From contig CAYHYK010000001.1 in NCBI GenBank assembly GCA_964360985.1, positions 1 through 45,013 on the forward strand: a stretch of DNA of 45,013 bases. The letters are read 5' to 3'. The notes below the pieces were generated by a model, which saw only the letters and a list, made by a program, of their open reading frames with translations, ran no database searches and was not told the origin of the DNA. Position 1 is the first letter of the stretch, and each line of letters begins with the position of its first letter. Origin of the DNA: Candidatus Woesearchaeota archaeon. GTDB lineage: Archaea > Nanobdellota > Nanobdellia > Pacearchaeales > GW2011-AR1. A program made the position numbers and the translations under genes. Positions 12,917 to 45,013 of the stretch are shown in pieces.

Positions 12917-13858
12917 CTAGCAATTTTTTATTGCCTCAAAATTTGCCTTTAGAGATAAGTTTGTCTCATCCGCATTTATCACTCTTATTGAAACACCCTG
13001 TATATCTTTTAAGTCATCCTCGGTTACTTCTTTAGTTTCGCTATGCCCTGAACTATCTGTAACCTTTATAGTTGCAGAAGTGTCTGAAGCAGAAACTAAC
13101 TCGAATTTATATAATTCACCACATAAACTCCTCTCTCCCATTACATTATCATGAGAAAGTTCAAAGTAAGCCCTTTCAGAATTTCTAGAAGTTCCTGTTC
13201 CTCCACCTAAACTTCCACTACCCGTACTTTCAGGCAATCCAGAATCTGCCAATTTCAAAACTTCTTTTGGAATACAAAGATATTGAAGCGAAACTATCGA
13301 TCCTTCAATCCAATCATTATGGGCTTTTGCTTCATTGATATTGATAGTTTGATCACAAGTAAAAAGTCCAGTCACATCATAATTAAAGTATTGGGTGTCT
13401 GGATGAACTATTCCACCAATCCCTAATAAGCACTCTTTTTCTGAGCCACATGCAATGCGTCCATTAACAGTTTCAAGCATTCCCTCTCTACCCATCCTGA
13501 TTTGGCCTGTAGACACAGAATTTCCAAACATTTCAGCAACACCCTGATAGGTTACTTTTGATAAAGATCCTTCCTTAGCAATACAAAAATCAGTTCCACG
13601 CGGATTAGACACACTAGGGCTTAACTGTTTACAATAAAGTCCAGAATTACATTCCAAATCATTATCACAATCTCCCTGTTTCAATGCACATTTAGTAGAA
13701 CTTGTACATCCTGGAGGCAATCTATCATAATCTACTCCATCTATACTAATAATTGCATTTCCAGTTAATCCTCCAAAAGAACCAACTACGAAAGCTATAG
13801 ATAACAAAGCAACAATGACAACCATCCAAGAAACTCTCTTACTAACTCCTTTTTTCAT
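12917..13858 (-). CDS. Secreted or membrane-anchored cysteine-rich protein (313 aa)
   Basis: N-terminal anchor 'WMVVIVALLSIAFVV'. Cys-rich module 'CTSSTKCALKQGDCDNDLECNSGLYC'. Encoded on the opposite strand between aIF2alpha and Nop10. Confidence 0.5.
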   Translation of the reverse strand: MKKGVSKRVSWMVVIVALLSIAFVVGSFGGLTGNAIISIDGVDYDRLPPGCTSSTKCALKQGDCDNDLECNSGLYCKQLSPSVSNPRGTDFCIAKEGSLSKVTYQGVAEMFGNSVSTGQIRMGREGMLETVNGRIACGSEKECLLGIGGIVHPDTQYFNYDVTGLFTCDQTININEAKAHNDWIEGSIVSLQYLCIPKEVLKLADSGLPESTGSGSLGGGTGTSRNSERAYFELSHDNVMGERSLCGELYKFELVSASDTSATIKVTDSSGHSETKEVTEDDLKDIQGVSIRVINADETNLSLKANFEAIKNC

Positions 13859-25589: not shown

Positions 25590-26663
25590 ATGTCAAAAAG
25601 AGAAGATAAATTTACTGTTGTAGAACTATTTGCTGGAGCTGGTGGACTAGCTCTAGGCTTAGAAAAAGCAGGATTAAAGAACGTTTTTCTTAATGAAATT
25701 GATAAAAATTGTGTAGCTACTTTGAGAAAAAACAGACCTAATTGGGATATTACACATAAAGATATAAAAGATGTTGACTTTAAAGAGATACAAGCAGACG
25801 TTTTAACTGGCGGCTTTCCTTGTCAGTCTTTTAGTCACGCTGGAAAAAGATTAGGGTTTGAAGATACAAGAGGTACTCTTTTTTTTGAGTTTGCTAGAGC
25901 AGTTAAGGAAATTCAACCTAAAATATTTATAGCGGAAAATGTCGCTGGATTGGTTTCACATGATAAGGGAAGAACCTTGCAAACAATGTTAAGAATATTG
26001 AGAGAAGATTTAGACAGCTATGATGTTCAATATAAAATTCTTAATGCAGTTAATTTTTCAGTTCCTCAAAAAAGGCAGAGAATTTTAATCGTTGGGACTA
26101 AAAAGGGAATCAATTTTCAATTTCCAAAAGATCACGACAAAATAATAAACTTAAGAGAAGCTTTACAAGGAGTTCCTAAGTCCGAAGGAATGCAATATTC
26201 TCTTAAAAGAAAAAAAGTTTTAGACTTGGTTCCTCCTGGAGGTAGCTGGGTAAATTTACCAAAGGGTATTCAAAAAGAATTTATGGGTAAGAGTTTTTTT
26301 AGTGGTGGAGGAAAGAGAGGAATGGCGAGACGTATTTCTTGGAACGAACCCTGTCTAACATTAACTACTTCTCCTTCTCAAAAGCAAACTGAAAGATGCC
26401 ACCCAGAAGAAACAAGACCCTTTACAATTAGAGAATATGCAAGAATACAAACCTTTCCAGATGATTGGGAATTTACTGGGAGCGTATCTTCCCAATATAA
26501 ACAAATAGGTAATGCTGTTCCAGTAAAACTTGCAGAAGAAATTGGAAAACAAATAATCAAAGCCTTATCAAACACAAATGAAGATATTATTGAAGAGCCA
26601 ATCCAAACAAACCTACAAGCTTTTTCATATCCTCTTCAAGAATCATCACTGATTTTCCCCTAA
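25590..26663 (+). CDS. DNA (cytosine-5)-methyltransferase
   Basis: C5-MTase motifs in order: I 'FAGAGG', IV 'GGFPCQSFS', VI 'ENV', VIII 'QKRQR', X 'GNAVPV'. Confidence 0.92.
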   Translation: MSKREDKFTVVELFAGAGGLALGLEKAGLKNVFLNEIDKNCVATLRKNRPNWDITHKDIKDVDFKEIQADVLTGGFPCQSFSHAGKRLGFEDTRGTLFFEFARAVKEIQPKIFIAENVAGLVSHDKGRTLQTMLRILREDLDSYDVQYKILNAVNFSVPQKRQRILIVGTKKGINFQFPKDHDKIINLREALQGVPKSEGMQYSLKRKKVLDLVPPGGSWVNLPKGIQKEFMGKSFFSGGGKRGMARRISWNEPCLTLTTSPSQKQTERCHPEETRPFTIREYARIQTFPDDWEFTGSVSSQYKQIGNAVPVKLAEEIGKQIIKALSNTNEDIIEEPIQTNLQAFSYPLQESSLIFP

Positions 26664-32192: not shown

Positions 32193-34679
32193 TTATTCAT
32201 CTGCAGCTTCATCTCTAACACCTGCAATTGTTACATAAAATTGAGCCTCGTTATCAGGCAAATTAGGAGAGTCAATTAGTTTAGCAACTCGACTTCCCTG
32301 TTTTCCTCTTCTTAAATATATTCGATATGTTGAGTTATGAACAACAAATCCGTTAGCCACATAATTCTGATTTTTAGGAACAGAAAAGTCATATAAAGTT
32401 TGCCCATTATTATCCTTAGTAGTTATCTCTCTAATTTTTTCAAAAATAATATCTCCATCAAGTAACTTTCCAATAAAATCTACTTTTTGTTTTATTTGTC
32501 TATCTTTTATTTGAACATTCATTAATGCCTTAAATGATGTCTCGAGTTCTTTTCTACTTACCCATTTATACTCTTTAGATCGAGGTCTTATTAGTTTAGA
32601 GTATCCTAAGTTACATTGCTCGAACAACATCTTCAGTTCATTTCTCCTTACAGGCATTAATTGATAACTGTAACTCTCGCCATGTTTCTCAATTCTTTCA
32701 ATTAAAGTTTTTTGTTTATCAGATGCACTAAAACCTATTTGTAGATAATCTCTAACATCTTTATCAATAATTCTCAGAACATTAACTTCCTTACCTGCCA
32801 CATTAAATTTAATAGTAGACCTAATTCCCAGTCTCAACAAGAACAGCTGTAAATATCTTAAAACTTTCTCATTTTTTTGAACTACTTTTATATAAGGTCT
32901 TTTCTTATCTATATGTCCCTCTGCATCAAAAAATCCTTTGATAAAACCTCTAACAACATTTACCTTAGACTTTCCGATCTCACTTAAAATATCTGGAAAT
33001 ATGCATTCAAATAAATCTCTCAGTTCTTTAGAGTTTATATTGAGAGTATAACAATTTTTATTGCTCATCTTAGTTATTTTTCCTTCTACATTAAATGTTT
33101 CCTTAAACAAGTTACTATAAACCTCTAAAACTTCAATTCTAGCATCTCTAAACCTTAATCCTCTCTCTTCAAAATTTCCATCACCCCAAAAATATCCTAA
33201 TATTTGTCCTAGTCTATAATCCAAAAATTCAGGAATTACTAAATCCCTATGTTTATTATTGACAACTGCAACCATCTCTAAAACCTGTTCTCCTCCATAA
33301 TAGTTTTGAAGATTATTCAAAACATCCCAGGAAGTTGGGTATTCTTGATTTACCACTCTCCTAAATTGTCTTGGAGTTATTCCTATTTGCTTGCATATCT
33401 CCTTTCGAGTAATTTTTTCATTAATTAATTTTTCAGTCAATACTTTTGCACTTTCCTTGGCAAGTTTTCCTACCTTCCTAAGCTTAAATTGAGGAAGTCT
33501 TCTCTCCTCTCCTTCAATATCAATTTTTCCAGCTTGAGCCACAAATTCTCCAGCATTAAGATTTCTAGCTTCTTTTTCAATTATATCAAAATTATTTATA
33601 CTGAAAAATCTATGAAGACCAGAGCAATTTATCTGACAATTCGTTTTTATATTATATATTTTATCGACATTCGGATTGATAAAAAGATTTTCAGAATTAG
33701 AATTTTCAAATTTTGCTTTCTCCAAATTTCCAGACAAAACATTTTCTTGTTTCATATCTCTAATTTCAATAATACTTCCATCAGCCAATTGAATTAAAGA
33801 GTCTCCAGTAAGACACATATGTCCCACGATATGCCCCCCGACGGGAGTAGTGGGATCTCCAAACATCATTCCAGGGTTAGCCATAACTTGATTAGTTACT
33901 AATATCGCTAAGTTATGTTGTTCAGCAAGTCTCATTAAATCGTGTAAATATCTATTCAACTTTTGCTGTCTATCTGCTAGTTGTCCTCTTCCAGCAAATT
34001 CAGCTCGAAAGTGAGCAGTCAATGAATCAATAACAATTAATTTAATGGGCTCTCCTTCTTTTATCATTTCCTTAATTTTATCAATTAATAATATCTGGTG
34101 ATCTGAATTAAATGCTCTAGCCACTAAAATATTTTTGAGTACTTTTTCAGGGTTAGCTCCTATCCCTTCAGCTATCTGTTTTATTCTTTCAGGTCTAAAA
34201 GTCCCTTCTGTATCAATATAAACTGATTTTCCATTAACTCCTCCACTTTCCTTAGGCAATTGAGCGTTTACCGACAAAGTTAAAGCACATTGAGTTTTTC
34301 CGCTTCCAAAACCTCCATATATTTCAGTCATTGATTTAGTCTCAACACCCTTTCCTCCTAGTAAATTATTCAAATTAACACTTCCTGTAGAAATATACCC
34401 AACATCCTCTCTTTTTTTAGCAAATTCAGTTCCATCCATGAAACCCAGTTTCATCATTCCTCTCGCAGCCTGTATTGCTTTTCTGGCGACAGCCTCTCCA
34501 ACACCAGCCATATCACTTAAAGAACTAGGACTCATTACAGCTAAGCCCATTAAATCATAAACTCCTGCTGCCTCTAGTTTAGCAGCAATCCCCGGACCTA
34601 TTCCAGGTACATCTGTTATCTTTGCCTCGCCCTCGCTCGGCTTATCCTCTTCCTCTTCTTTGCCTTCTTTTTTTGTCAT
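32193..34679 (-). CDS. radA: DNA repair and recombination protein RadA, interrupted by an intein
   Basis: N-terminal HhH 'VPGIGPGIAAKLEAAG', Walker A 'GGFGSGKTQ', Walker B 'LIVIDS' and the 'GGHIVGHM' block. After 494 extra residues comes 'STYRIYLRRGK'. Confidence 0.92.
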   Translation of the reverse strand: MTKKEGKEEEEDKPSEGEAKITDVPGIGPGIAAKLEAAGVYDLMGLAVMSPSSLSDMAGVGEAVARKAIQAARGMMKLGFMDGTEFAKKREDVGYISTGSVNLNNLLGGKGVETKSMTEIYGGFGSGKTQCALTLSVNAQLPKESGGVNGKSVYIDTEGTFRPERIKQIAEGIGANPEKVLKNILVARAFNSDHQILLIDKIKEMIKEGEPIKLIVIDSLTAHFRAEFAGRGQLADRQQKLNRYLHDLMRLAEQHNLAILVTNQVMANPGMMFGDPTTPVGGHIVGHMCLTGDSLIQLADGSIIEIRDMKQENVLSGNLEKAKFENSNSENLFINPNVDKIYNIKTNCQINCSGLHRFFSINNFDIIEKEARNLNAGEFVAQAGKIDIEGEERRLPQFKLRKVGKLAKESAKVLTEKLINEKITRKEICKQIGITPRQFRRVVNQEYPTSWDVLNNLQNYYGGEQVLEMVAVVNNKHRDLVIPEFLDYRLGQILGYFWGDGNFEERGLRFRDARIEVLEVYSNLFKETFNVEGKITKMSNKNCYTLNINSKELRDLFECIFPDILSEIGKSKVNVVRGFIKGFFDAEGHIDKKRPYIKVVQKNEKVLRYLQLFLLRLGIRSTIKFNVAGKEVNVLRIIDKDVRDYLQIGFSASDKQKTLIERIEKHGESYSYQLMPVRRNELKMLFEQCNLGYSKLIRPRSKEYKWVSRKELETSFKALMNVQIKDRQIKQKVDFIGKLLDGDIIFEKIREITTKDNNGQTLYDFSVPKNQNYVANGFVVHNSTYRIYLRRGKQGSRVAKLIDSPNLPDNEAQFYVTIAGVRDEAADE
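32334..33815 (-). mobile_element. Intein (494 aa) with a LAGLIDADG homing endonuclease domain inside RadA
   Basis: Starts 'CLTGDSLIQLADG' (Cys codon 33813..33815). Ends 'ANGFVVHN' followed by Ser (Asn codon 32334..32336). LAGLIDADG blocks are 'LGYFWGDGNF' and 'FIKGFFDAEGH'. Confidence 0.85.
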
Positions 34680-37663: not shown

Positions 37664-38281
37664 ATGGCATTAACACCTTCCCAAATAAAAGAATTAAAAA
37701 TACAACTTTTATCTCAAATAAAAGACCTTCCCCCTCAGAGAAGAAAAGAAGCAGAAGAACAAATAGAATCTCTTTCTCCAGAATCTTTGGAAGCTATGCT
37801 TGAAGAACAACAGTCCAGAAATCAAAAGAACGTTTTTAGAATGATTGTTAATTCAGAAATACCTTCAGTTAAAATATCAGAAAATTCTAAAGCCTTAGCA
37901 GTATTATCAACAAAATCCCTCTCAAAAGGACACTCAATAATAATTCCAAAAATTTCTGTAGAAGATGAAGAGTCAATACCCAAAGAAGCCCATAAATTAT
38001 CTGAAGAATTATCAAAGAAATTAATACATTCTTTAGGAGCAAAATCCACATCCATAATTCCTGAAAAGATATTTGGAGAAATGATAATAAATGTTATTCC
38101 GATTTATGAAAAAGAGGTAAATCTAAAATCAAAAAGAGAAGACATTTCAATAGAAGATCTGGAAAAATTAAAAACCTCTATAAATATTGAAAAAATAGAT
38201 AAAAAACCTCAGTTAATTATCCAAGAAAAGAAAATAAACGAAGAACATCAACCTCTAAAATTAAAAAGAAGAATACCATAA
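37664..38281 (+). CDS. HIT-fold protein lacking the histidine triad
   Basis: 'VFRMIVNSEIPSVKISENSKALAVLSTKSLSKGHSIIIPK' matches the HIT N-terminal half. 'GEMIINVIPIY' occupies the HxHxHxx position with no His. Confidence 0.5.
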   Translation: MALTPSQIKELKIQLLSQIKDLPPQRRKEAEEQIESLSPESLEAMLEEQQSRNQKNVFRMIVNSEIPSVKISENSKALAVLSTKSLSKGHSIIIPKISVEDEESIPKEAHKLSEELSKKLIHSLGAKSTSIIPEKIFGEMIINVIPIYEKEVNLKSKREDISIEDLEKLKTSINIEKIDKKPQLIIQEKKINEEHQPLKLKRRIP

Positions 38282-39050
38282 TTAAAGAGAGTAAAAATGC
38301 GGGAGTAAATGGTATTCCTTCTTTAATATACACTTCTTTGTCATTTTTCTTGAGTATAGCAATATCTTTTATGCTTAACCCGTGAACACTTCTTCCAATC
38401 ATCTTATTACCTACCCTTACCTCTTTATCCAGCCAATCTCCCTCACTTAATTTACTAGCAGGTAATTTAACAATCATACACTTATCTAAAGATTTTACAT
38501 AAAAATAAAGTAATGCTATAGACAAATAAAACATAGAAATCACTCCCCTGCTAAATAATAAATCTGCTAAAACTGTTAAAGCTAGGAAAATTCCAGCCAG
38601 TTTGTAATTTCTTTTTAAGTTTCCACTAAACTCTTTAATAAATTTCTCTTTCCTCTTTAATACAATAAAAACGCTATAAATCAGACTATATATTACTCCC
38701 AAAAAGAACAATCCAAAAAGAAACACTAATCCATAATAAAATAAATCACTAAAATTGCTGTAAGGTAAAATCACTCCAAATCCCATTAATAATTTAGCAT
38801 CTCCTCCAGCAAATGCACGAGCATAGTAAAAACCATAAGCTAAAGCAAAAAACACACAAAATCCTACAGCTCCAAAAAAGAAGAATGAATAATCATTTAC
38901 ATGTATAGAATAAAACGCCCTATAAGCAAGTGCAAAAGCAATTAAAGAAAAGTTAAGCCAGTTAGGCACCTCTCTCTTCTTTAAATCAACAAATACTGCA
39001 ATAGCAGTCCATATAAAAGCCAGTGCAAAAAGAAAATAATATTCCTCCAT
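38217..39050 (-). CDS. Type IV prepilin/preflagellin peptidase (A24 family, PibD/FlaK-like)
   Basis: Polytopic membrane protein. First catalytic Asp in 'VFVDLKKREVPNWLN', second in 'FAGGDAKLLMGFG', and C-terminal 'GIPFTPAFLLS'. Confidence 0.75.
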   Translation of the reverse strand: MEEYYFLFALAFIWTAIAVFVDLKKREVPNWLNFSLIAFALAYRAFYSIHVNDYSFFFFGAVGFCVFFALAYGFYYARAFAGGDAKLLMGFGVILPYSNFSDLFYYGLVFLFGLFFLGVIYSLIYSVFIVLKRKEKFIKEFSGNLKRNYKLAGIFLALTVLADLLFSRGVISMFYLSIALLYFYVKSLDKCMIVKLPASKLSEGDWLDKEVRVGNKMIGRSVHGLSIKDIAILKKNDKEVYIKEGIPFTPAFLLSLIMVFFFLILEVDVLRLFSFLG

Positions 39051-39100: not shown

Positions 39101-40072
39101 ATGCACCAAGAAGAAATAAACAAATATCTCTTCTGGGGAGTATTAGCTATCCTTCTCCTTATTTCCTACTTTATTCTTAAGCCCTTTCTTATAGCCTTGC
39201 TATCTTCATTCATACTAGCTTATCTTATTAAACCTCTACATAATTACCTCTCTTCTTTTGTAGGAAAGAAAATTTCAGCACTTATATGCGTAATATTCAT
39301 AACTCTGCTAATTATAATTCCTATTGCCATAATTATTGGAGGTATAGTTTCACAAGCCAATAATTCTCTAAACGCTTCTTTCATAAAGTCTACTTTGGCT
39401 GATATCTCCTCTCTCCCATTTATAGAAAATTTACCTATTGACTTTTCATCTCTTTCCCAAAGAGCAGTAGAACTGATAATTTCTCTCCTAAAAGTTTCCG
39501 CACTAGCGATTCCTACAGTTGCACTATCTATCTTAGTTTCTGCATTTGCTATATTCTATATACTGATAAGTTGGGATTTACTTAAAGAGAAATTAAAAGA
39601 ATATCTACCATTTAAAGACAAATCAAAATTTATAAAAGAAGTTTCTACTGCGACAAACTCCATAGTACATGGAACCATACTCATAGGGTTTATAGAATTT
39701 GTAGTCGCAGCATTAGGTTTCTATCTTAGTGGCGTTAAACCTTTTCTTCTATTAGCTATAATAATATTCTTCTTTGCTTTTATTCCAGGTCTCGGTCCTG
39801 CTGCAGTCTGGATACCTTCAGCATTATATTATTTCCTCACCCAAAATTCATTTACAGCACTAGGAGTCTTAATAACTGGTTTAATAATTAGCATCTTTAT
39901 AGATGGAATAATAAAGATAAAATTCCTTGGTGAAAAGTCAAAAATACATCCTCTCATTATGCTTCTAGGAGTATTAGGTGGAATTCCCCTATTCGGCATA
40001 TTCGGCTTTGTAATCGGTCCCCTAATACTAATCTATACAATAGACCTCTTAGATGAATTTCTTAAAAATTAA
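39101..40072 (+). CDS. AI-2E family (PerM/UPF0118) transporter
   Basis: Eight TM segments. 'FAFIPGLGPAAVWIPSALYY' and 'GVLGGIPLFGIFGFVIGP' are typical of the family. Confidence 0.75.
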   Translation: MHQEEINKYLFWGVLAILLLISYFILKPFLIALLSSFILAYLIKPLHNYLSSFVGKKISALICVIFITLLIIIPIAIIIGGIVSQANNSLNASFIKSTLADISSLPFIENLPIDFSSLSQRAVELIISLLKVSALAIPTVALSILVSAFAIFYILISWDLLKEKLKEYLPFKDKSKFIKEVSTATNSIVHGTILIGFIEFVVAALGFYLSGVKPFLLLAIIIFFFAFIPGLGPAAVWIPSALYYFLTQNSFTALGVLITGLIISIFIDGIIKIKFLGEKSKIHPLIMLLGVLGGIPLFGIFGFVIGPLILIYTIDLLDEFLKN

Positions 40073-40371
40073 TTTTTCAAGAAGATCATCTTCCTCAATT
40101 TTTGCCCAAACTTTTCTATCAATATCAAAAACATTAACATGCTGTAAAATAGAAACATCCATTTCAACTATTTGCACCTAAAATAATAATTATATTAAAG
40201 TTTCTTCCCTTCATTAGTAGAGGAAACATTCGCACTTCTATACTTCCCGCCTCTCTTATATTTCATATATCTCCCTTTAGCCCTCTTATCTCCTTTACTC
40301 TTCCGCTTACTTGGCATTGCATAATCCATATTTAATCCAATAATTCATACTTTAAATTTCTATCTAAAAAA

Positions 40372-40686
40372 CTAAGCCGGACAAGTTAACTTCGAACCGC
40401 CCAATTCACGCAAAACTCTATCATCCAAACAATTTATTTCTTCAGGCTTACCGTCTACTCTAACCTTCTTCTTTTGACAAAAATCAATAGTTGAATCCGT
40501 AGCAACCGCAACTTTACATGAAGCCACCATTGCACTCAAATCACTTCCAGAAGTGATTCTGAATTTAGAAAATAAATTATCCCATCCAATTGAAAATCCC
40601 AAAACAAGAAGTACAAGAACTATAATTCCTAATACTATTAAAATCAAAGTTCCTATAGACAACTCCTGCCCTCTCTTTTCATTCAT
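40372..40686 (-). CDS. Archaeal type IV pilin-like protein with a class III signal peptide
   Basis: 'MNEKRGQELSIGTLILIVLGIIVLVLLVLGF' has a short basic leader ending KRG, then a hydrophobic helix. Four Cys lie in the globular part. It has its own TATA box about 25 nt upstream. Confidence 0.65.
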   Translation of the reverse strand: MNEKRGQELSIGTLILIVLGIIVLVLLVLGFSIGWDNLFSKFRITSGSDLSAMVASCKVAVATDSTIDFCQKKKVRVDGKPEEINCLDDRVLRELGGSKLTCPA

Positions 40687-40858
40687 ATTCTACCCAAATC
40701 AATTTAATTTATAAATGTTTCTAACTATTGTAGTTAATCCACAAACTCAATGATATCTACCAACCGTACATAAAAAAGGAAAGATTCTTTGAACACTAAG
40801 ATCTAGTTGGAATAGTTTTGCCCTTCGCATTTCTCACAGCCATCCTATGGTTGGCTAA

Positions 40859-41125
40859 TCACTTTCTAGGGGCATTTATCCAGTAACGTTTTATAACTGA
40901 AAAGATTGTTATCCATATTGCAAGCAGTAAGCCAAGACCCAATACCATTCCTGGTATTCCTGCCATCTCATAGCCAAGTCCAGCAACTAGTGAGACTCCA
41001 GAAACAAGATACAAAATTTCAGGCAATGAAAAGCTTGTAAAATATGATAAAATAAACACTGCCCCTATAATGGCTATGAAGATAAGAAAAAAATATGCCC
41101 TCTTTGACCTCTTATATTCCACCAT
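40859..41125 (-). CDS. Small three-TM membrane protein (88 aa)
   Basis: Hydrophobic ORF lying between the pilin gene and the pilin-like operon. Confidence 0.45.
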   Translation of the reverse strand: MVEYKRSKRAYFFLIFIAIIGAVFILSYFTSFSLPEILYLVSGVSLVAGLGYEMAGIPGMVLGLGLLLAIWITIFSVIKRYWINAPRK

Positions 41126-41194
41126 ATACTCTAAAAAGCTTAGAATATATTTAAATCTATTGTAATTTGCTAATATTATTTTTCTGACATAAGA

Positions 41195-41665
41195 CTAACT
41201 ATTCAATACATCCCCACTATAATCAAATTCTATCGCCAAATCCATCTTTCTTTCTATAGAATTTGCTCCTCTTTCTATCTTTATCTTAAAATCTTGTATT
41301 TCAAAAGAGTATTTAGTTTCATCCCTACTAAATTCAAATTCTCCTCTTAAAAGTTTGCCATAATAGTTTTCTAAGCCTGCGATTTCATAATTTCTGCGAC
41401 TAAACTCTTTTATAAATTCCTCCTTAAGTTTAGACTCTTCAATAATTCCTCCGCGTTCAATAACTTTTCGGGATATTATTTCTATATCTTTGATAATATA
41501 TTCCTCGTAAAAAGACATTTCATTTAGAATTTCATCTCTTTCTTGACCATTTTCCATAAAACTGTCCTTAAAACTTACAAAGGAAAATAATGCACTAGTC
41601 ACCAAAACAAACGCCACCAAAAACATCATAAAAGTCGGCAAATCTCCCTTCCTGTTCATTTTCAT
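41195..41665 (-). CDS. Pilin-like operon gene 6 (class III signal peptide protein)
   Basis: 'MKMNRKGDLPTFMMFLVAFVLVTSALF'. Its ATG overlaps the upstream stop (ATGA). Confidence 0.55.
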   Translation of the reverse strand: MKMNRKGDLPTFMMFLVAFVLVTSALFSFVSFKDSFMENGQERDEILNEMSFYEEYIIKDIEIISRKVIERGGIIEESKLKEEFIKEFSRRNYEIAGLENYYGKLLRGEFEFSRDETKYSFEIQDFKIKIERGANSIERKMDLAIEFDYSGDVLNS

Positions 41666-42342
41666 TCTAAACACCTTCCATAATAATATTGTAAGTAAAT
41701 TCTTTCTTCCTCATTTATATTCTTAAAAGATATTTCTCTTAGCAATCCTTTCTGTTCATATAATCTTAGCCTCAAAGGATTGTATCCAATATTTCCAGAA
41801 GATATTTCTCCACCTTCAAATTCTATTAAGAAATCATCAATGGCTGCCCCTCCAGTCTGTCCTGCGGAATTTTTCCCTCCCTGTGCAATTGCAATACAAT
41901 GCCCTTCCTTTTTTTCCTCCATGAGTAAATCCCCTAGAGCCATTTCAATTTTCTCCTTTTCAATTTTATTTTCTCTATCCATTATTAAAGCATCAAAAAC
42001 TAAAATTTTCTTTCCTCTTCCATCAATATCCAATTTTATCTCTTTAAGCAGTATATTTTCACTTTCTATAGAAGAAATTTTAGAAGGAATAGTAGGTTTT
42101 GCAAACAAAGTTGTGAAAGAAGTAAGAACCAAAAATAAAGCAATTATAAAAACTATAATTAAAAATACTGGCAAAGTGGATAATGCCTTGGCGATGACTC
42201 CTCGTTTATCTTTAATTATATCTTTCCCTCTCTGAGTATTAATAACTCCTCGTTTATCTTTACTCATGTCTTTCCCTCCTTGAATATCAATAACTCCTCG
42301 TTTATCTCTAATCATTTCCTTTCTTCTCTGAATGTCAATCAT
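41662..42342 (-). CDS. Pilin-like operon gene 5, with a triplicated KRGV signal-peptide repeat
   Basis: Three 16-aa units each end 'DKRGVI'. Only the last is followed by the hydrophobic helix 'LSTLPVFLIIVFIIALFLVL'. ATGA coupling at both ends. Confidence 0.55.
   Translation of the reverse strand: MIDIQRRKEMIRDKRGVIDIQGGKDMSKDKRGVINTQRGKDIIKDKRGVIAKALSTLPVFLIIVFIIALFLVLTSFTTLFAKPTIPSKISSIESENILLKEIKLDIDGRGKKILVFDALIMDRENKIEKEKIEMALGDLLMEEKKEGHCIAIAQGGKNSAGQTGGAAIDDFLIEFEGGEISSGNIGYNPLRLRLYEQKGLLREISFKNINEEERIYLQYYYGRCLE
42190..42333 (-). repeat. In-frame tandem repeat, 3 x 48 nt
   Basis: On the plus strand, 'ACTCCTCGTTTATCT' recurs at 42197, 42245 and 42293 (period 48). It encodes IQRRKEMIRDKRGVID / IQGGKDMSKDKRGVIN / TQRGKDIIKDKRGVIA. 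Confidence 0.8.
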
Positions 42343-42806
42343 GTCCTCTCTCTCCTTGAATACTGGTTGCTCCCAGTAACTACAACATATTTCTTTCCAT
42401 CTTTCTCCATTTCATTTATAGAACATATATGGAAATTAGATTCTTTTCTATCAAGTTTGCACAAATTAAAATTATTTCCTACACTAATGTAATTTTCTCT
42501 GTTAACTAAACAATCTCCATTAAAACCATCACATATCCTTAATAAATTATTTTTAACCAAAACTTCTCTATTCAAATTACATTTTTCAAAAAATTCTGTT
42601 TCACCAAAAAATGTTGTATCTATTTCATTTTCCAAAATACATTTACTTACCTTATAATTCAATAAATTAGCCTCACTTTCTCTATAATCATATCCTCCTC
42701 CGTAAAATATACTTACTCCTAGAACTATTCCCCCACCTACAATAACCATTAAAAAAATAAAATAAATTCCACTTAATTGCTCTCCTACCGCTCCTTTTCT
42801 GTTCAT
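42339..42806 (-). CDS. Pilin-like operon gene 4 (class III signal peptide protein)
   Basis: 'MNRKGAVGEQLSGIYFIFLMVIVGGGIVLGV' with a Cys-rich C-terminal part. ATGA coupling at both ends. Confidence 0.55.
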   Translation of the reverse strand: MNRKGAVGEQLSGIYFIFLMVIVGGGIVLGVSIFYGGGYDYRESEANLLNYKVSKCILENEIDTTFFGETEFFEKCNLNREVLVKNNLLRICDGFNGDCLVNRENYISVGNNFNLCKLDRKESNFHICSINEMEKDGKKYVVVTGSNQYSRRERT

Positions 42807-43240
42807 GCAATACCTCCACTTTTTACAGCATTAAAACATAATGTATTAACAAATTTTTTATCTTTATAAGTTGCCAATTTAAAATCCAGATTTACTATTT
42901 CAACATTATTAAAATAATTTGTACATCTCTTTATTCCTTTGCTGAATTTAACACAAACTTCATTCTTTATATTGTTTATTTCGAATATTTCACTACCAGT
43001 TCCAACTTCATTTTTTTCCGCTATTTCACTTGCCTTATGTACATCCAAACATATGCTATCTCCTTCCTCCATAAAATCAATTACCTTAGCCATTTCATTA
43101 GAATAATAGTTAGCCCATACATCTGCACCTTCTCTTTGTTGATATATGAAATAAAACATCCCAGAAACAAAAATAACTAATAGTATAAAGTAAACCAAAT
43201 AACTTTTCAATAAATCTTCCACTTCAGCTTTTTTATTCAT
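42803..43240 (-). CDS. Pilin-like operon gene 3 (N-terminal TM anchor, no KG motif)
   Basis: 'MNKKAEVEDLLKSYLVYFILLVIFVSGMFYF'. ATG 43240 overlaps the upstream TGA; the track start is TTG. Confidence 0.5.
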   Translation of the reverse strand: MNKKAEVEDLLKSYLVYFILLVIFVSGMFYFIYQQREGADVWANYYSNEMAKVIDFMEEGDSICLDVHKASEIAEKNEVGTGSEIFEINNIKNEVCVKFSKGIKRCTNYFNNVEIVNLDFKLATYKDKKFVNTLCFNAVKSGGIA

Positions 43241-43899
43241 CTTAAACAACTTTTTCTTATTTTCAAAGTGGCAGGATCATCAATTTGAACGTTCATTACA
43301 CTAGCACTTTCTTTTTCCTTATATAATATTAGTTTATAAATAATGTCTTCATCAAACCCAGCGCAGTAAGAAAGGTATCCTGCTCTTTCTCCATCAATTA
43401 ATATATGACTTTCTCCAGAATATTTCGCCTCAATTGTATTTTTTATTACCTCTTCATCTTTAATTACAGTGGATTTTCCTTTCATCTTAGATAAAGTATA
43501 AACTCCTATTTTATCTATATCTATTTCTTTGCAAAAACCTCCCTGCTGACACATGTTTTTAGCATTTCCCTCTCCAAATTTACATATACATAAACAACTT
43601 CCAAAAAAACATTTATCAGGTTTAGTACCCGTATCATCGTCTTTACTCCACGAAGTCAAATACCAGTTCTCAAGTCCCCTTAAATTAAACTCTGCAATTT
43701 TTAGTTCTTCTAGATCACTAACCCTACTAATTAAATCATCTAAAATTTTCCCAGCGTTATCACTTTCTTTTTGATTAATAACACCATACACTTTAGAAAC
43801 CGCAAAAACAAAAATTACTGCTACAACCACAAATATAATTATACCAGGAAATTCCTCCATTAAATTTCCTCTCTTTCCTATTTTCTTTAAATAATTCAT
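43237..43899 (-). CDS. Pilin-like operon gene 2 (class III signal peptide protein)
   Basis: 'MNYLKKIGKRGNLMEEFPGIIIFVVVAVIFVFAV' with a Cys-rich ectodomain. ATG 43899 overlaps the upstream TGA. Confidence 0.55.
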   Translation of the reverse strand: MNYLKKIGKRGNLMEEFPGIIIFVVVAVIFVFAVSKVYGVINQKESDNAGKILDDLISRVSDLEELKIAEFNLRGLENWYLTSWSKDDDTGTKPDKCFFGSCLCICKFGEGNAKNMCQQGGFCKEIDIDKIGVYTLSKMKGKSTVIKDEEVIKNTIEAKYSGESHILIDGERAGYLSYCAGFDEDIIYKLILYKEKESASVMNVQIDDPATLKIRKSCLR

Positions 43900-44954
43900 A
43901 CGTTTCCTAGTATTCCCCCACTGCAAATTCTGTTAATTTCTTCAACCTTATTGTAATCTACTGCTGTTATTATAGAGCATCCTTTTCGGCTGTCTCCTCC
44001 CTCAATTCTGCTTCCAGTAAAATCTCCACAATAAGAAGCAGATATTGCCTTATTTTGTTCTGATTGAATGTAAGCCTTTCCAGCAATTCCTGCAGTAATT
44101 CCTATTTCAGCAAGATAAAGAAAAACAGTGGCCTTTGTTCCAACTCTAGTTGTCCATCCAACTATCTTTCCAAAACCACTTGTAGCACGTTCACCTGCAA
44201 TAATTGCTCCTACCCCTATCAAAGCACTATCAAATGCTTTTCCAAGTGAATCTCCTTCAGTATTAATCTGTGCAAATAATATAGCAATATCATCAGTTCC
44301 GTAATCTTTCGCGTTTTCAGTCTTATCTATTTCATTTTCAAAAGAATCATAAGTACTTACCGCTCCATCAGTAAATATACTCAAATAACTCTCTTTTGAT
44401 TGTGGAGCCTGATTTTCTTCAAGAAAATCATTTATATCCACTTCTTCTATAATCTCTTTAAATCTCATCCCTGACTTAAAATCTTCATCGAAAGCTATCC
44501 TTGAACATATAACACAAACCGGTTCAGCTTTTTCTAAAGGTAATGTATCTCCAAGTAAATCAACTCTTCCCTCTCCCATCATTTTCCAGCATGAAAGCAT
44601 TGAATCCGCAACACTCTTCTCAATTATTTTGGCAGCTTTTTCAGGTTCACCACTTATCCTTAACCTTTCCGCCTCTCCATCAGCAAACTGTTCCTCACAT
44701 TTTCCAAAAACACTATCCGTTACACAAGTTTCACGCGTACTGCATTTCAAAGGAATATTTATTGCCTTCTTGCCGTAATCAGGAGTAATAGCTCTAGATA
44801 GTACACTTAATTGACAAGTCTCATCAACACTAAACTCCTTAAAATCTACTCTCAAAACAAAATAAAGTAGAACTACTAAACTAACAACTGCTATAGTTAT
44901 AACAAATATAAAATAAGAAATTGTCTGCACTCCTTTCTTGCCAATATACCTCAT
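43896..44954 (-). CDS. Pilin-like operon gene 1 (large, Cys-rich, class III signal peptide protein)
   Basis: 'MRYIGKKGVQTISYFIFVITIAVVSLVVLLYF'. Many Cys, plus extra hydrophobic segments near the C-terminus. A TATA-like box (44975..44982) lies about 25 nt upstream of ATG 44954. Confidence 0.55.
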   Translation of the reverse strand: MRYIGKKGVQTISYFIFVITIAVVSLVVLLYFVLRVDFKEFSVDETCQLSVLSRAITPDYGKKAINIPLKCSTRETCVTDSVFGKCEEQFADGEAERLRISGEPEKAAKIIEKSVADSMLSCWKMMGEGRVDLLGDTLPLEKAEPVCVICSRIAFDEDFKSGMRFKEIIEEVDINDFLEENQAPQSKESYLSIFTDGAVSTYDSFENEIDKTENAKDYGTDDIAILFAQINTEGDSLGKAFDSALIGVGAIIAGERATSGFGKIVGWTTRVGTKATVFLYLAEIGITAGIAGKAYIQSEQNKAISASYCGDFTGSRIEGGDSRKGCSIITAVDYNKVEEINRICSGGILGNV

Positions 44955-45013
44955 CAATATAATAATTTACCTCTATTTATAACAATTACTATTAATTGTA
45001 AAGGTTCTTTATT

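Follow-up and report, generated by a model that had tools for sequence, protein, structure and literature searches.

Among described systems, the closest to the locus reported here are the Epd pilus of Methanococcus maripaludis (system 1 of the type IV filament, TFF, systems; ATPase clade 1) and the bacterial Tad/Flp pilus. A separate gene encodes the major pilin in Methanococcus, outside the operon of required minor pilins (PMC6098224, PMC4371748), and major pilins tend to be tandemly duplicated, as noted by Makarova et al. (PMC4858521). Within the bacterial Candidate Phyla Radiation (CPR), the type IV pili (T4P) of Saccharibacteria drive host binding (PMC9894109, PMC11623550). The Woese-/Pacearchaeota-type DPANN archaea are abundant in groundwater, uncultivated and presumed to be host-dependent. 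The 2016 census of Makarova et al. holds no Woese- or Pacearchaeota (PMC4858521); a 2026 preprint from the Albers laboratory (10.64898/2026.04.22.720090) names DPANN among those that carry system 1, Aap-like and 4A loci, with Woese- and Pacearchaeota unmentioned in its text; and in one preprint on groundwater DPANN were treated as lacking T4P components. We examined a 45,013-nt stretch of DNA (the window) from a Candidatus Woesearchaeota archaeon (assembly GCA_964360985.1, contig CAYHYK010000001.1, positions 1 to 45,013 of the forward strand), whose right end carries a cluster of genes for proteins with pilin-like N-termini. In our judgement this region probably represents the module that supplies the subunits of a functional TFF pilus, with the 104-aa product P8 as its major pilin. 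It is a lineage-specific variant of the archaeal type IV filament system, conserved in groundwater Woese-/Pacearchaeota-type DPANN archaea.

A previous reading of the window, made from its sequence only and called here the sequence-only reading, had described a six-gene translationally coupled operon and a separately promoted 104-aa pilin gene, in what it took to be an episymbiotic small-genome archaeon; the relatives found here are metagenome-assembled genomes (MAGs) of DPANN type, labelled Woese-, Pace- and Nanoarchaeota. When the reverse complement was read base by base, all five junctions of the minus-strand run from 44954 to 41195 proved to be ATGA stop/start overlaps, exactly as quoted, and P1-P6 is a separate, translationally coupled unit. 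Start codons are ATG at 44954 (P1, 59 nt from the right end of the window) and at 40686 (P8). The six coupled genes are real, but they form only the middle part of a pilin module of 10-11 genes, and the gene list of that reading was incomplete: it missed the open reading frame (ORF) P7 between P6 and P8 and the 3' end of U37 at 44992..45013. Products are labelled in coordinate order from high to low, P1-P6 being the coupled ones, and an arrow marks the predicted cleavage site:

44992..45013, minus strand: U37, the final 22 nt of an upstream gene, cut off by the window end, for a pilin-like mini-protein of about 37-42 aa
43896..44954, minus strand: P1, 352 aa, leader MRYIGKKG↓VQT.., one N-terminal helix, ten conserved Cys
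43237..43899, minus strand: P2, 220 aa, leader ..KKIGKRG↓NLMEEF, 8 Cys
42803..43240, minus strand: P3, 145 aa, leader MNKKA↓EVEDLL, Ala at -1, 4 Cys
42339..42806, minus strand: P4, 155 aa, leader MNRKG↓AVGEQ, 6 Cys
41662..42342, minus strand: P5, 226 aa, leader ..DKRG↓VIAKAL, 2 Cys
41195..41665, minus strand: P6, 156 aa, leader MKMNRKG↓DLPTF, no Cys, the last coupled gene
43896-43899, 43237-43240, 42803-42806, 42339-42342 and 41662-41665, minus strand: ATGA stop/start overlaps, read on the reverse complement
40859..41125, minus strand: P7, an 88-aa ORF with two hydrophobic segments and its own TATA-like box
40372..40686, minus strand: P8, 104 aa, leader MNEKRG↓QELSIGTLILIVLG.. (QELSIG), 4 Cys
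38217..39050, minus strand: A24 prepilin peptidase of FlaK/PibD type, 277 aa, about 6 transmembrane (TM) segments

Class III signal peptides were called with a permissive home-made rule and published processing sites (PMC4371748), not with FlaFind. Over all starts of the 207 stop-to-stop ORFs of at least 50 aa the rule matched 11 ORFs; because seven of these 11 lie within 40372-44966, the clustering of such leaders is not due to chance. P5 misses the rule solely owing to its triplicated, lengthened leader. On the Kyte-Doolittle scale P1-P6 and P8 show one hydrophobic segment each, at the N-terminus, and among the orthologues (ten families, about 17 species) a [KR][GA] pair stands directly before the hydrophobic helix of about 20 aa in 136 of 145, including 18/18 for P1 and 19/19 for P8; Gly8 is invariant in the P1 alignment. 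The six leaders quoted in the sequence-only reading stand as stated; to these has to be added the seventh protein, P3, which is class III-like as well (KKA↓EVED). Most P3 orthologues have K[KR]G, the KKA↓E of the window being an Ala variant, and Ala at -1 also occurs in characterised PibD substrates (KA↓IS and RA↓LS; PMC4371748 Table 1).

Beyond the leader the proteins have little in common. Alignment of the ten families with hhalign confined the similarity to the leader and N-terminal helix, as expected, this being the usual situation for pilins; past the helix the families do not appear to be recognisable paralogues of each other. The ectodomains are mostly Cys-rich, as had been claimed (10, 8, 4, 6, 2, 0 and 4 Cys for P1-P6 and P8). 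That none resembles a characterised protein also held: the eight window proteins P1-P8 gave no meaningful match in Pfam, NCBIfam or PHROGs, P1 and P8 had no significant structural match, and profile searches of P1 and P8 against PDB sequences returned nothing significant. In a related MAG the Prokaryotic Genome Annotation Pipeline names the ATPase and the peptidase only; the platform and all the pilin-like proteins are ‘hypothetical’. Membership in the TFF is thus supported by signal-peptide architecture, peptidase and machinery context, and not by homology of the globular parts. As to the features expected of a TFF system, P1-P6 and P8 fit the class III signal peptide by sequence, an A24 peptidase with two catalytic Asp is encoded at 38217..39050, and a T2SSE ATPase lies outside the window, in the syntenic loci and in L026, a contig of the window's own sample described below.

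The sequence-only reading had reported that no assembly ATPase or membrane platform is nearby. Within the window this is so: neither a T2SSE ATPase nor a T2SSF platform is among the ten largest ORFs (at least 313 aa), which are archaeal housekeeping genes (SRP54, an intein-containing RadA, RPA, a DEAD helicase, an ABC transporter). Related loci were taken from long MAG contigs and from 18 loci of GTDB species representatives labelled Woesearchaeota, Pacearchaeota or Nanoarchaeota, and their six-frame ORFs were searched with phmmer. One of the 18, L025, was non-syntenic, leaving 17; statements on synteny hold where the contig extends far enough. The order found was a gene for a coiled-coil protein of about 101 aa, divergent from the gene of a T2SSE ATPase of about 756 aa, then 0-3 kb of variable genes, then a membrane protein of about 720 aa encoded on the strand opposite to the pilin operon; on the operon strand there followed U54, U328, U37, P1-P6, one or two copies of P8, often an AI-2E transporter, and the A24 peptidase. 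In most of the 17 the ATPase gene lies 4-9 kb upstream of P1, and the platform gene is divergent and directly upstream of the pilin module. Homologues never found with pilus machinery had been named beforehand as grounds for giving up the pilin proposal; the opposite was seen, with platform and ATPase in the syntenic loci. The coiled-coil gene was observed divergently upstream of the ATPase gene in 11 species-level loci (41-62% identity; e.g., L003:725-1030 and L005:870-1175).

For the ATPase, matches were obtained to T2SSE (7e-14), A. fulgidus GspE2 (2OAP; 1.6e-28), CpaF (7e-25), and the NCBIfam families TadA (7e-40) and FlaI (6e-35), all under the equivalog cut-offs, and also to the bindosome ATPase BasE (2e-16) and ComGA (1e-10). 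The protein of about 720 aa has about 9 hydrophobic segments and more than 4,390 homologues at E<=1e-20, the 120 matches listed being 64-81% identical to the query. Some of its homologues are named ‘Flp pilus assembly protein TadB’ by the Joint Genome Institute, and a few carry PF00482; its profile gave no significant match against PDB. Position and topology fit a remote TadC/FlaJ-type platform, and the protein may be one, the sequence evidence for this being weak.

Two contigs of one assembly bring the machinery close to the window itself. L001 (sample Hain_H51_01um_R1) matches the window at 100% identity over 2359 nt and runs on for another 949 nt; this extension carries, on the same strand, U37, with its end 37 nt ahead of P1, and pieces of a larger gene. 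L026 encodes the C-terminal 294 aa of the ATPase (3e-169), TrmB, a platform (P0115), U54, and the N-terminus of U328. P0115 is 79% identical to the platform of L005 and is recorded on a contig of 57,738 bp, the length also given for the contig of the window's P1 and P8. Since both the syntenic loci and these contigs carry ATPase and platform upstream, the missing ATPase is an artefact of where the window was cut. L001 and L026 share 16 nt at their ends and diverge inside U328, and no join was possible; both L001:1-856 and L026:1-331 break in U328, and in L001 a pair of overlapping ORFs makes up the 3' part of U328. Differences between strains, a frameshift or misassembly at low coverage are suggested by this pattern in U328, the large pilin-like gene that varies most.

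Conservation differs widely along the locus. Relative to the window or L003 proteins, identities are 69-79% for the ATPase, 61-80% for the platform and 43-65% for the A24 peptidase; for the coupled products they are 30-64% (P3), 25-57% (P4), 22-53% (P6), 29-50% (P1), 26-45% (P5) and 25-41% (P2), and for U328 26-43%. P8 is the most conserved pilin-like protein, being 48-79% identical in most loci and 36% in L017, with no BLASTP match in 3 of the 14 loci compared.

The coupled unit and P8 have their own transcription signals:

44975..44989, minus strand: promoter of P1-P6, GTAATTGTTATAAAT, an element resembling a transcription factor B recognition element (BRE) followed by a TATA box
40708..40715, minus strand: TATA box of P8, TTTATAAA, 29 nt before the ATG
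40366..40371, minus strand: T6 run, TAGTTTTTT, directly after the P8 stop codon

The TATA-like box previously placed at 44975..44982 is present as TTATAAAT and belongs to a promoter conserved across species. The TATA of P1-P6 starts 28 nt before the ATG, and at so short a distance the mRNA is probably leaderless. The motif GTAATTGTTATAAA, with its TATA at -28 of the P1 ATG, recurs in about 14 of the 17 species, and the P2 upstream regions, used as a control, had no such motif. The claim that the 104-aa gene at 40372..40686 is separately promoted was borne out likewise: aaagrTTTATAAAta is found at -29 of P8 in nearly all species, and a T6 terminator follows. Oligo-T runs terminate archaeal transcription. 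As the T6 run after the P8 stop is a typical archaeal oligo-T terminator, the P8 transcript is taken to be monocistronic. U54 also has its own A/T box.

P8 is thus the best candidate for the major pilin, as it is the most conserved subunit, has its own conserved TATA and T6 run, is duplicated, and is modelled as a helix with a small head. The proposal of one major and several minor subunits is supported, with P8 as candidate for the major one. At least 100 P8 homologues were found at 34-79% identity, with a near-invariant N-terminal helix (QELSIGTLILIVLGIIVLVLLVLGF), and P8 is tandemly duplicated in 5 syntenic loci. Its AlphaFold2 model (predicted local distance difference test score, pLDDT, 79) has a long helix at 11-41, then a small alpha/beta (helix/hairpin) head with the four Cys. 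P1-P6, together with U54, U328 and U37, would form a priming or tip set.

P1 is a candidate minor or tip subunit. Its close relatives are few (11 in 90% clusters, 36-50% identity, on long MAG contigs), and its profile matches 2153 cluster representatives at E<=1e-3; its AlphaFold2 model, moderate at pLDDT 60.7, has the N-terminal helix and an alpha/beta domain, with residues 236-303 unmodelled. P2 is among the fastest-evolving members. In P5 a 48-bp x 3.0 tandem repeat at 42197..42339 (83% matches) triplicates the leader including the DKRG↓VI cleavage motif; this is seen in the window only, and the orthologues have a single short leader (MNRKG↓QLIGK..). P7 has no counterpart in any of the 17 syntenic loci, where a gap of about 35-160 nt typically separates P6 from P8; it may represent a lineage-specific insertion, or it could be no gene, and it is probably not a pilin. 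Of the upstream members, U37 has a K[KR]G leader in most syntenic loci, U54 (about 55 aa) is head-less and has the leader MVTKRG↓FELPW.. on L026, and U328 is a pilin-like protein of 250-450 aa upstream of U37 in the syntenic loci.

The A24 peptidase was rightly recognised in the sequence-only reading: it matches PF01478 at 3.6e-13 and NCBIfam FlaK_Arch at 7e-11 (under the family cut-off), and aligned to M. maripaludis FlaK (3S0X) it keeps both catalytic Asp motifs (vDlkkRE and GGDaKLL). The position of its gene is conserved in the syntenic loci. Between P8 and the peptidase gene lies an AI-2E family transporter gene (39101..40072, plus strand; Pfam 2e-35), which is at the same place in about 10 syntenic loci; the linkage is conserved and unexplained. 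Away from the locus, a 313-aa protein encoded at 12917..13858 (minus strand), with no Pfam or NCBIfam match, has the class III-like N-terminus MKKG↓VSKRVSWMVVIVALLSIAFVV and may be a further substrate of the A24 peptidase.

The gene structure, the leaders, the identity of the peptidase and its catalytic motifs, the synteny with ATPase and platform, and the conservation of the promoters are shown by the sequences; from them we infer cleavage, filament formation, the assignment of major and minor subunits, and a role in host adhesion. The products would be inserted in the membrane through their N-terminal helix, and the A24 peptidase (38217..39050) would cut behind the conserved Gly or Ala, freeing the protein of its short basic leader. 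The mature subunits would then be extracted and polymerised by a TadA/GspE2/FlaI-like ATPase and a TadC/FlaJ-like platform encoded just beyond the right end of the window. P8 (40372..40686), with its own consensus promoter and terminator, would be the major subunit; P1-P6, being translationally coupled, would be made in roughly stoichiometric amounts and, together with U54/U328/U37, would constitute a priming or tip complex of low abundance, analogous to EpdA-C, GspHIJK and FimU-PilVWX. A role in host attachment is plausible, as a conjecture.

Several points weigh against a pilus with P8 as its major pilin. No archaeal pilin or class III model of Pfam or NCBIfam was matched at E<=1 by P1-P8, and Foldseek comparison of the P1 and P8 models with PDB found no solved pilin (best E 0.87 and 3.8), the P1 model being moderate (pLDDT 60.7); the class III assignment itself comes from a home-made rule, not FlaFind. 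The T2SSF (PF00482) signal of the platform is weak (7/30 members, best 3e-6; L003 at 1e-4, below the gathering score), and P0115 has no PF00482 match. We infer that ATPase and platform lie on the window's own contig from the 57,738-bp match and the shared sample, and cleavage and a filament are predicted here from the genes. The head-less U54, of about 55 aa and Flp/EpdE-like, could be the major subunit instead of P8. Finally, residues 236-303 of P1 are TM-like in some homologues, which is awkward for a subunit that should leave the membrane. This last point leads to an alternative in which P1-P6, wholly or in part and P1 above all, are a membrane-resident alignment or anchoring complex (PilN/PilO-, GspL/M- or FlaF/FlaG-like), and P8 or U54 alone polymerises. 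We hold it to be unlikely. The conserved low-charge Gly/Ala/Ser-rich segment of P1, 60-70 aa long, reaches a maximum 19-residue hydropathy of 1.3-2.3 and is TM-like in several homologues, with AlphaFold2 pLDDT below 30; the P1 and P8 models have no fold likeness to solved pilins, and translational coupling of P1-P6 would fit any stoichiometric complex. A simple signal anchor, however, needs no Gly or Ala at the predicted -1, which is kept in 18/18 P1 orthologues and in 94% of all family members; the leader-plus-helix profile is common to P8 and P1-P6, the locus has conserved an A24 peptidase of its own, and even Cys counts, with conserved Cys on either side of the P1 hydrophobic segment, indicate an extracellular ectodomain.

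The machine could also be a TFF system with no role in host adhesion, i.e., a short pseudopilus that takes up DNA or nutrients or serves protein secretion (Com-like, or like a type II secretion system, T2SS) or a bindosome-like scaffold, in an auxotrophic small-genome archaeon. We regard this as rather improbable, while giving it some weight: ten conserved pilin-like families are closer to T2SS/Com pseudopilin sets than to simple adhesive pili, the ATPase is also like BasE (2e-16) and ComGA (1e-10), and proteins that carry class III signal peptides and functionalise TFF machines are suggested to occur widely in archaea (preprint 10.64898/2026.04.22.720090). Against it, Pfam and NCBIfam scans found no substrate-binding, nuclease, ComEC-like or DNA-binding domain in any member, the ATPase is matched far better by TadA, GspE2 and FlaI than by BasE or ComGA, and P8 behaves as a typical abundant structural pilin in its conservation, promoter and duplication. 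That the leaders are chance positive-inside signal anchors of unrelated proteins, in a cluster that forms no unit with the peptidase, would agree with the lack of family matches and with the many K-rich N-termini and TATA-like boxes that AT-rich genomes give; yet the pattern occupies seven or eight adjacent genes, versus about 1-4 elsewhere among the 207 ORFs, and order, leaders and promoters are conserved in about 17 species, always beside the platform, ATPase and A24 genes. Synteny effectively refutes that explanation, to which we assign almost no likelihood. Three other identities were tried and rejected. An archaellum was rejected as P1-P8 have no archaellin or Fla family match and the ATPase scores 121 bits where the FlaI equivalog asks for 550; the genes listed for the syntenic loci include nothing FlaH-like. 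A bindosome was rejected for want of substrate-binding protein domains, and a viral or mobile origin because of the housekeeping flanks (SRP54, RadA with intein, RPA) and the conserved chromosomal synteny. The reading we prefer remains a TFF pilus with P8 as its major pilin.

Two features of the subunits are unexplained. The P1-P6 and P8 proteins of the window have 0 N-x-S/T sequons, versus 6.7 expected from shuffles, whereas the other window proteins are not depleted (54 observed, 59.5 expected). In the orthologues (L003-L024), which are non-independent samples, the counts observed and expected were 3 and 31.4 for P1, 2 and 11.8 for P5, 6 and 15.1 for P8, 5 and 13.6 for P2, and 5 and 12.9 for P3. 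Characterised archaeal pilins usually carry several sequons (PMC4371748). The second feature is the conserved, low-charge Gly/Ala/Ser-rich hydrophobic segment of P1 (residues 236-303, 44046..44249), 60-70 aa long and rich in small-xxx-small motifs. The only matches it gave, neither of them significant and both probably compositional, were to regions that insert into membranes in the pore-former SmhB (E 0.24) and in the translocon protein SseD (E 0.18). P1 might be a tip subunit in which this segment forms a hydrophobic hairpin between disulfide-bonded parts of the ectodomain and inserts into the membrane of another cell, a speculation we consider doubtful. If it were true, the pilus would act as a device that engages host membranes and not as a simple adhesin, and the avoidance of sequons in P1, P5, P8, P2 and P3 would represent a need for glycan-free contact or packing surfaces.

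The non-syntenic contig L025, labelled Methanosarcinales, encodes at L025:3367-7266 five proteins in a row whose leaders resemble class III (..KKRA↓E, ..GNKA↓E, ..GRKA↓E, ..NRKG↓D and ..KKRA↓E), and one of its proteins shares the central CW..MGEG..CVICSRIA domain of P1 (E 4e-9). This may represent occurrence of the P1 domain beyond DPANN, or it could result from a mis-binned contig. Elsewhere in the window, RadA (Rad51 family; 32193..34679, minus strand) has an intein with a LAGLIDADG endonuclease, and the RadA of the relative L005 is 1331 aa long with two inteins. A C-5 cytosine DNA methyltransferase (25590..26663, plus strand; Pfam 3.9e-91) lies amid housekeeping genes.

For its own lineage the locus, complete and highly conserved, contradicts the absence of T4P components in DPANN. 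It defines a subunit set of about ten families, all annotated as ‘hypothetical’, and provides targets for metaproteomics, antibodies, cryo-electron tomography and annotation models. The novelty lies in undescribed subunit families and in the lineage; the design is that of an ordinary, well-known machine, and no new principle is involved.

Comparison with known systems places the locus as follows. With the Saccharibacteria T4P it shares an ultra-small, host-dependent lineage and a conserved T4P-type system, whereas those pili use bacterial PilB/PilC/PilT, and no subunit homology to the present locus was found. The haloarchaeal T4P of subclade 4F (PMC4858521) likewise have a small cytoplasmic coiled-coil protein by the ATPase; the one here, of about 101 aa, recalls arCOG07564, and a link to this subclade of Makarova et al. 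may serve as a lead only. Like the GspH-I-J-K and FimU-PilV-W-X-E/PilY1 sets, the locus has several pilin-like proteins that share the N-terminal helix alone, come from a single coupled operon next to the machinery genes, count one large protein among them, and differ from the abundant major subunit; but there is no sequence likeness for any member and no structural likeness for P1 or P8, and the analogy would be architectural only. Resemblance to bacterial Tad/Flp pili extends to the ATPase, which aligns to CpaF (7e-25) and the TadA family (7e-40), to platform homologues named TadB, and to U54, which is head-less like Flp. In contrast, the present system has an archaeal chromosomal context and a 756-aa ATPase with an N-terminal extension of about 300 aa. 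Secretin, TadZ and TadG are missing, the pilin-like families number ten instead of three or four, and the head of P8, the candidate major pilin, is small and Cys-bonded.

The Epd pilus differs in having two platform genes (EpdJ/K) where a single gene of about 720 aa is found here, and a large 9-TM EppA where the peptidase here is of the short FlaK/PibD type (277 aa, about 6 TM). Unlike the Epd pilins, P1-P8 have no match to PF04021 (Class_IIIsignal/DUF361) at E<=1. The +1 residue is Gln in Epd and mostly V, N, E, A or D here, and a FlaK/PibD-type peptidase would need to tolerate V, N, E, A, D and Q there; the Epd site, K/R-G followed by Q, is shared by P8 and most P5 orthologues (PMC4371748 Table 1; PMC6098224). 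Both systems have a prepilin peptidase in or near the locus, and the Epd pilus has the same arrangement of an operon of minor pilins, there required for assembly, with the major pilin transcribed separately.

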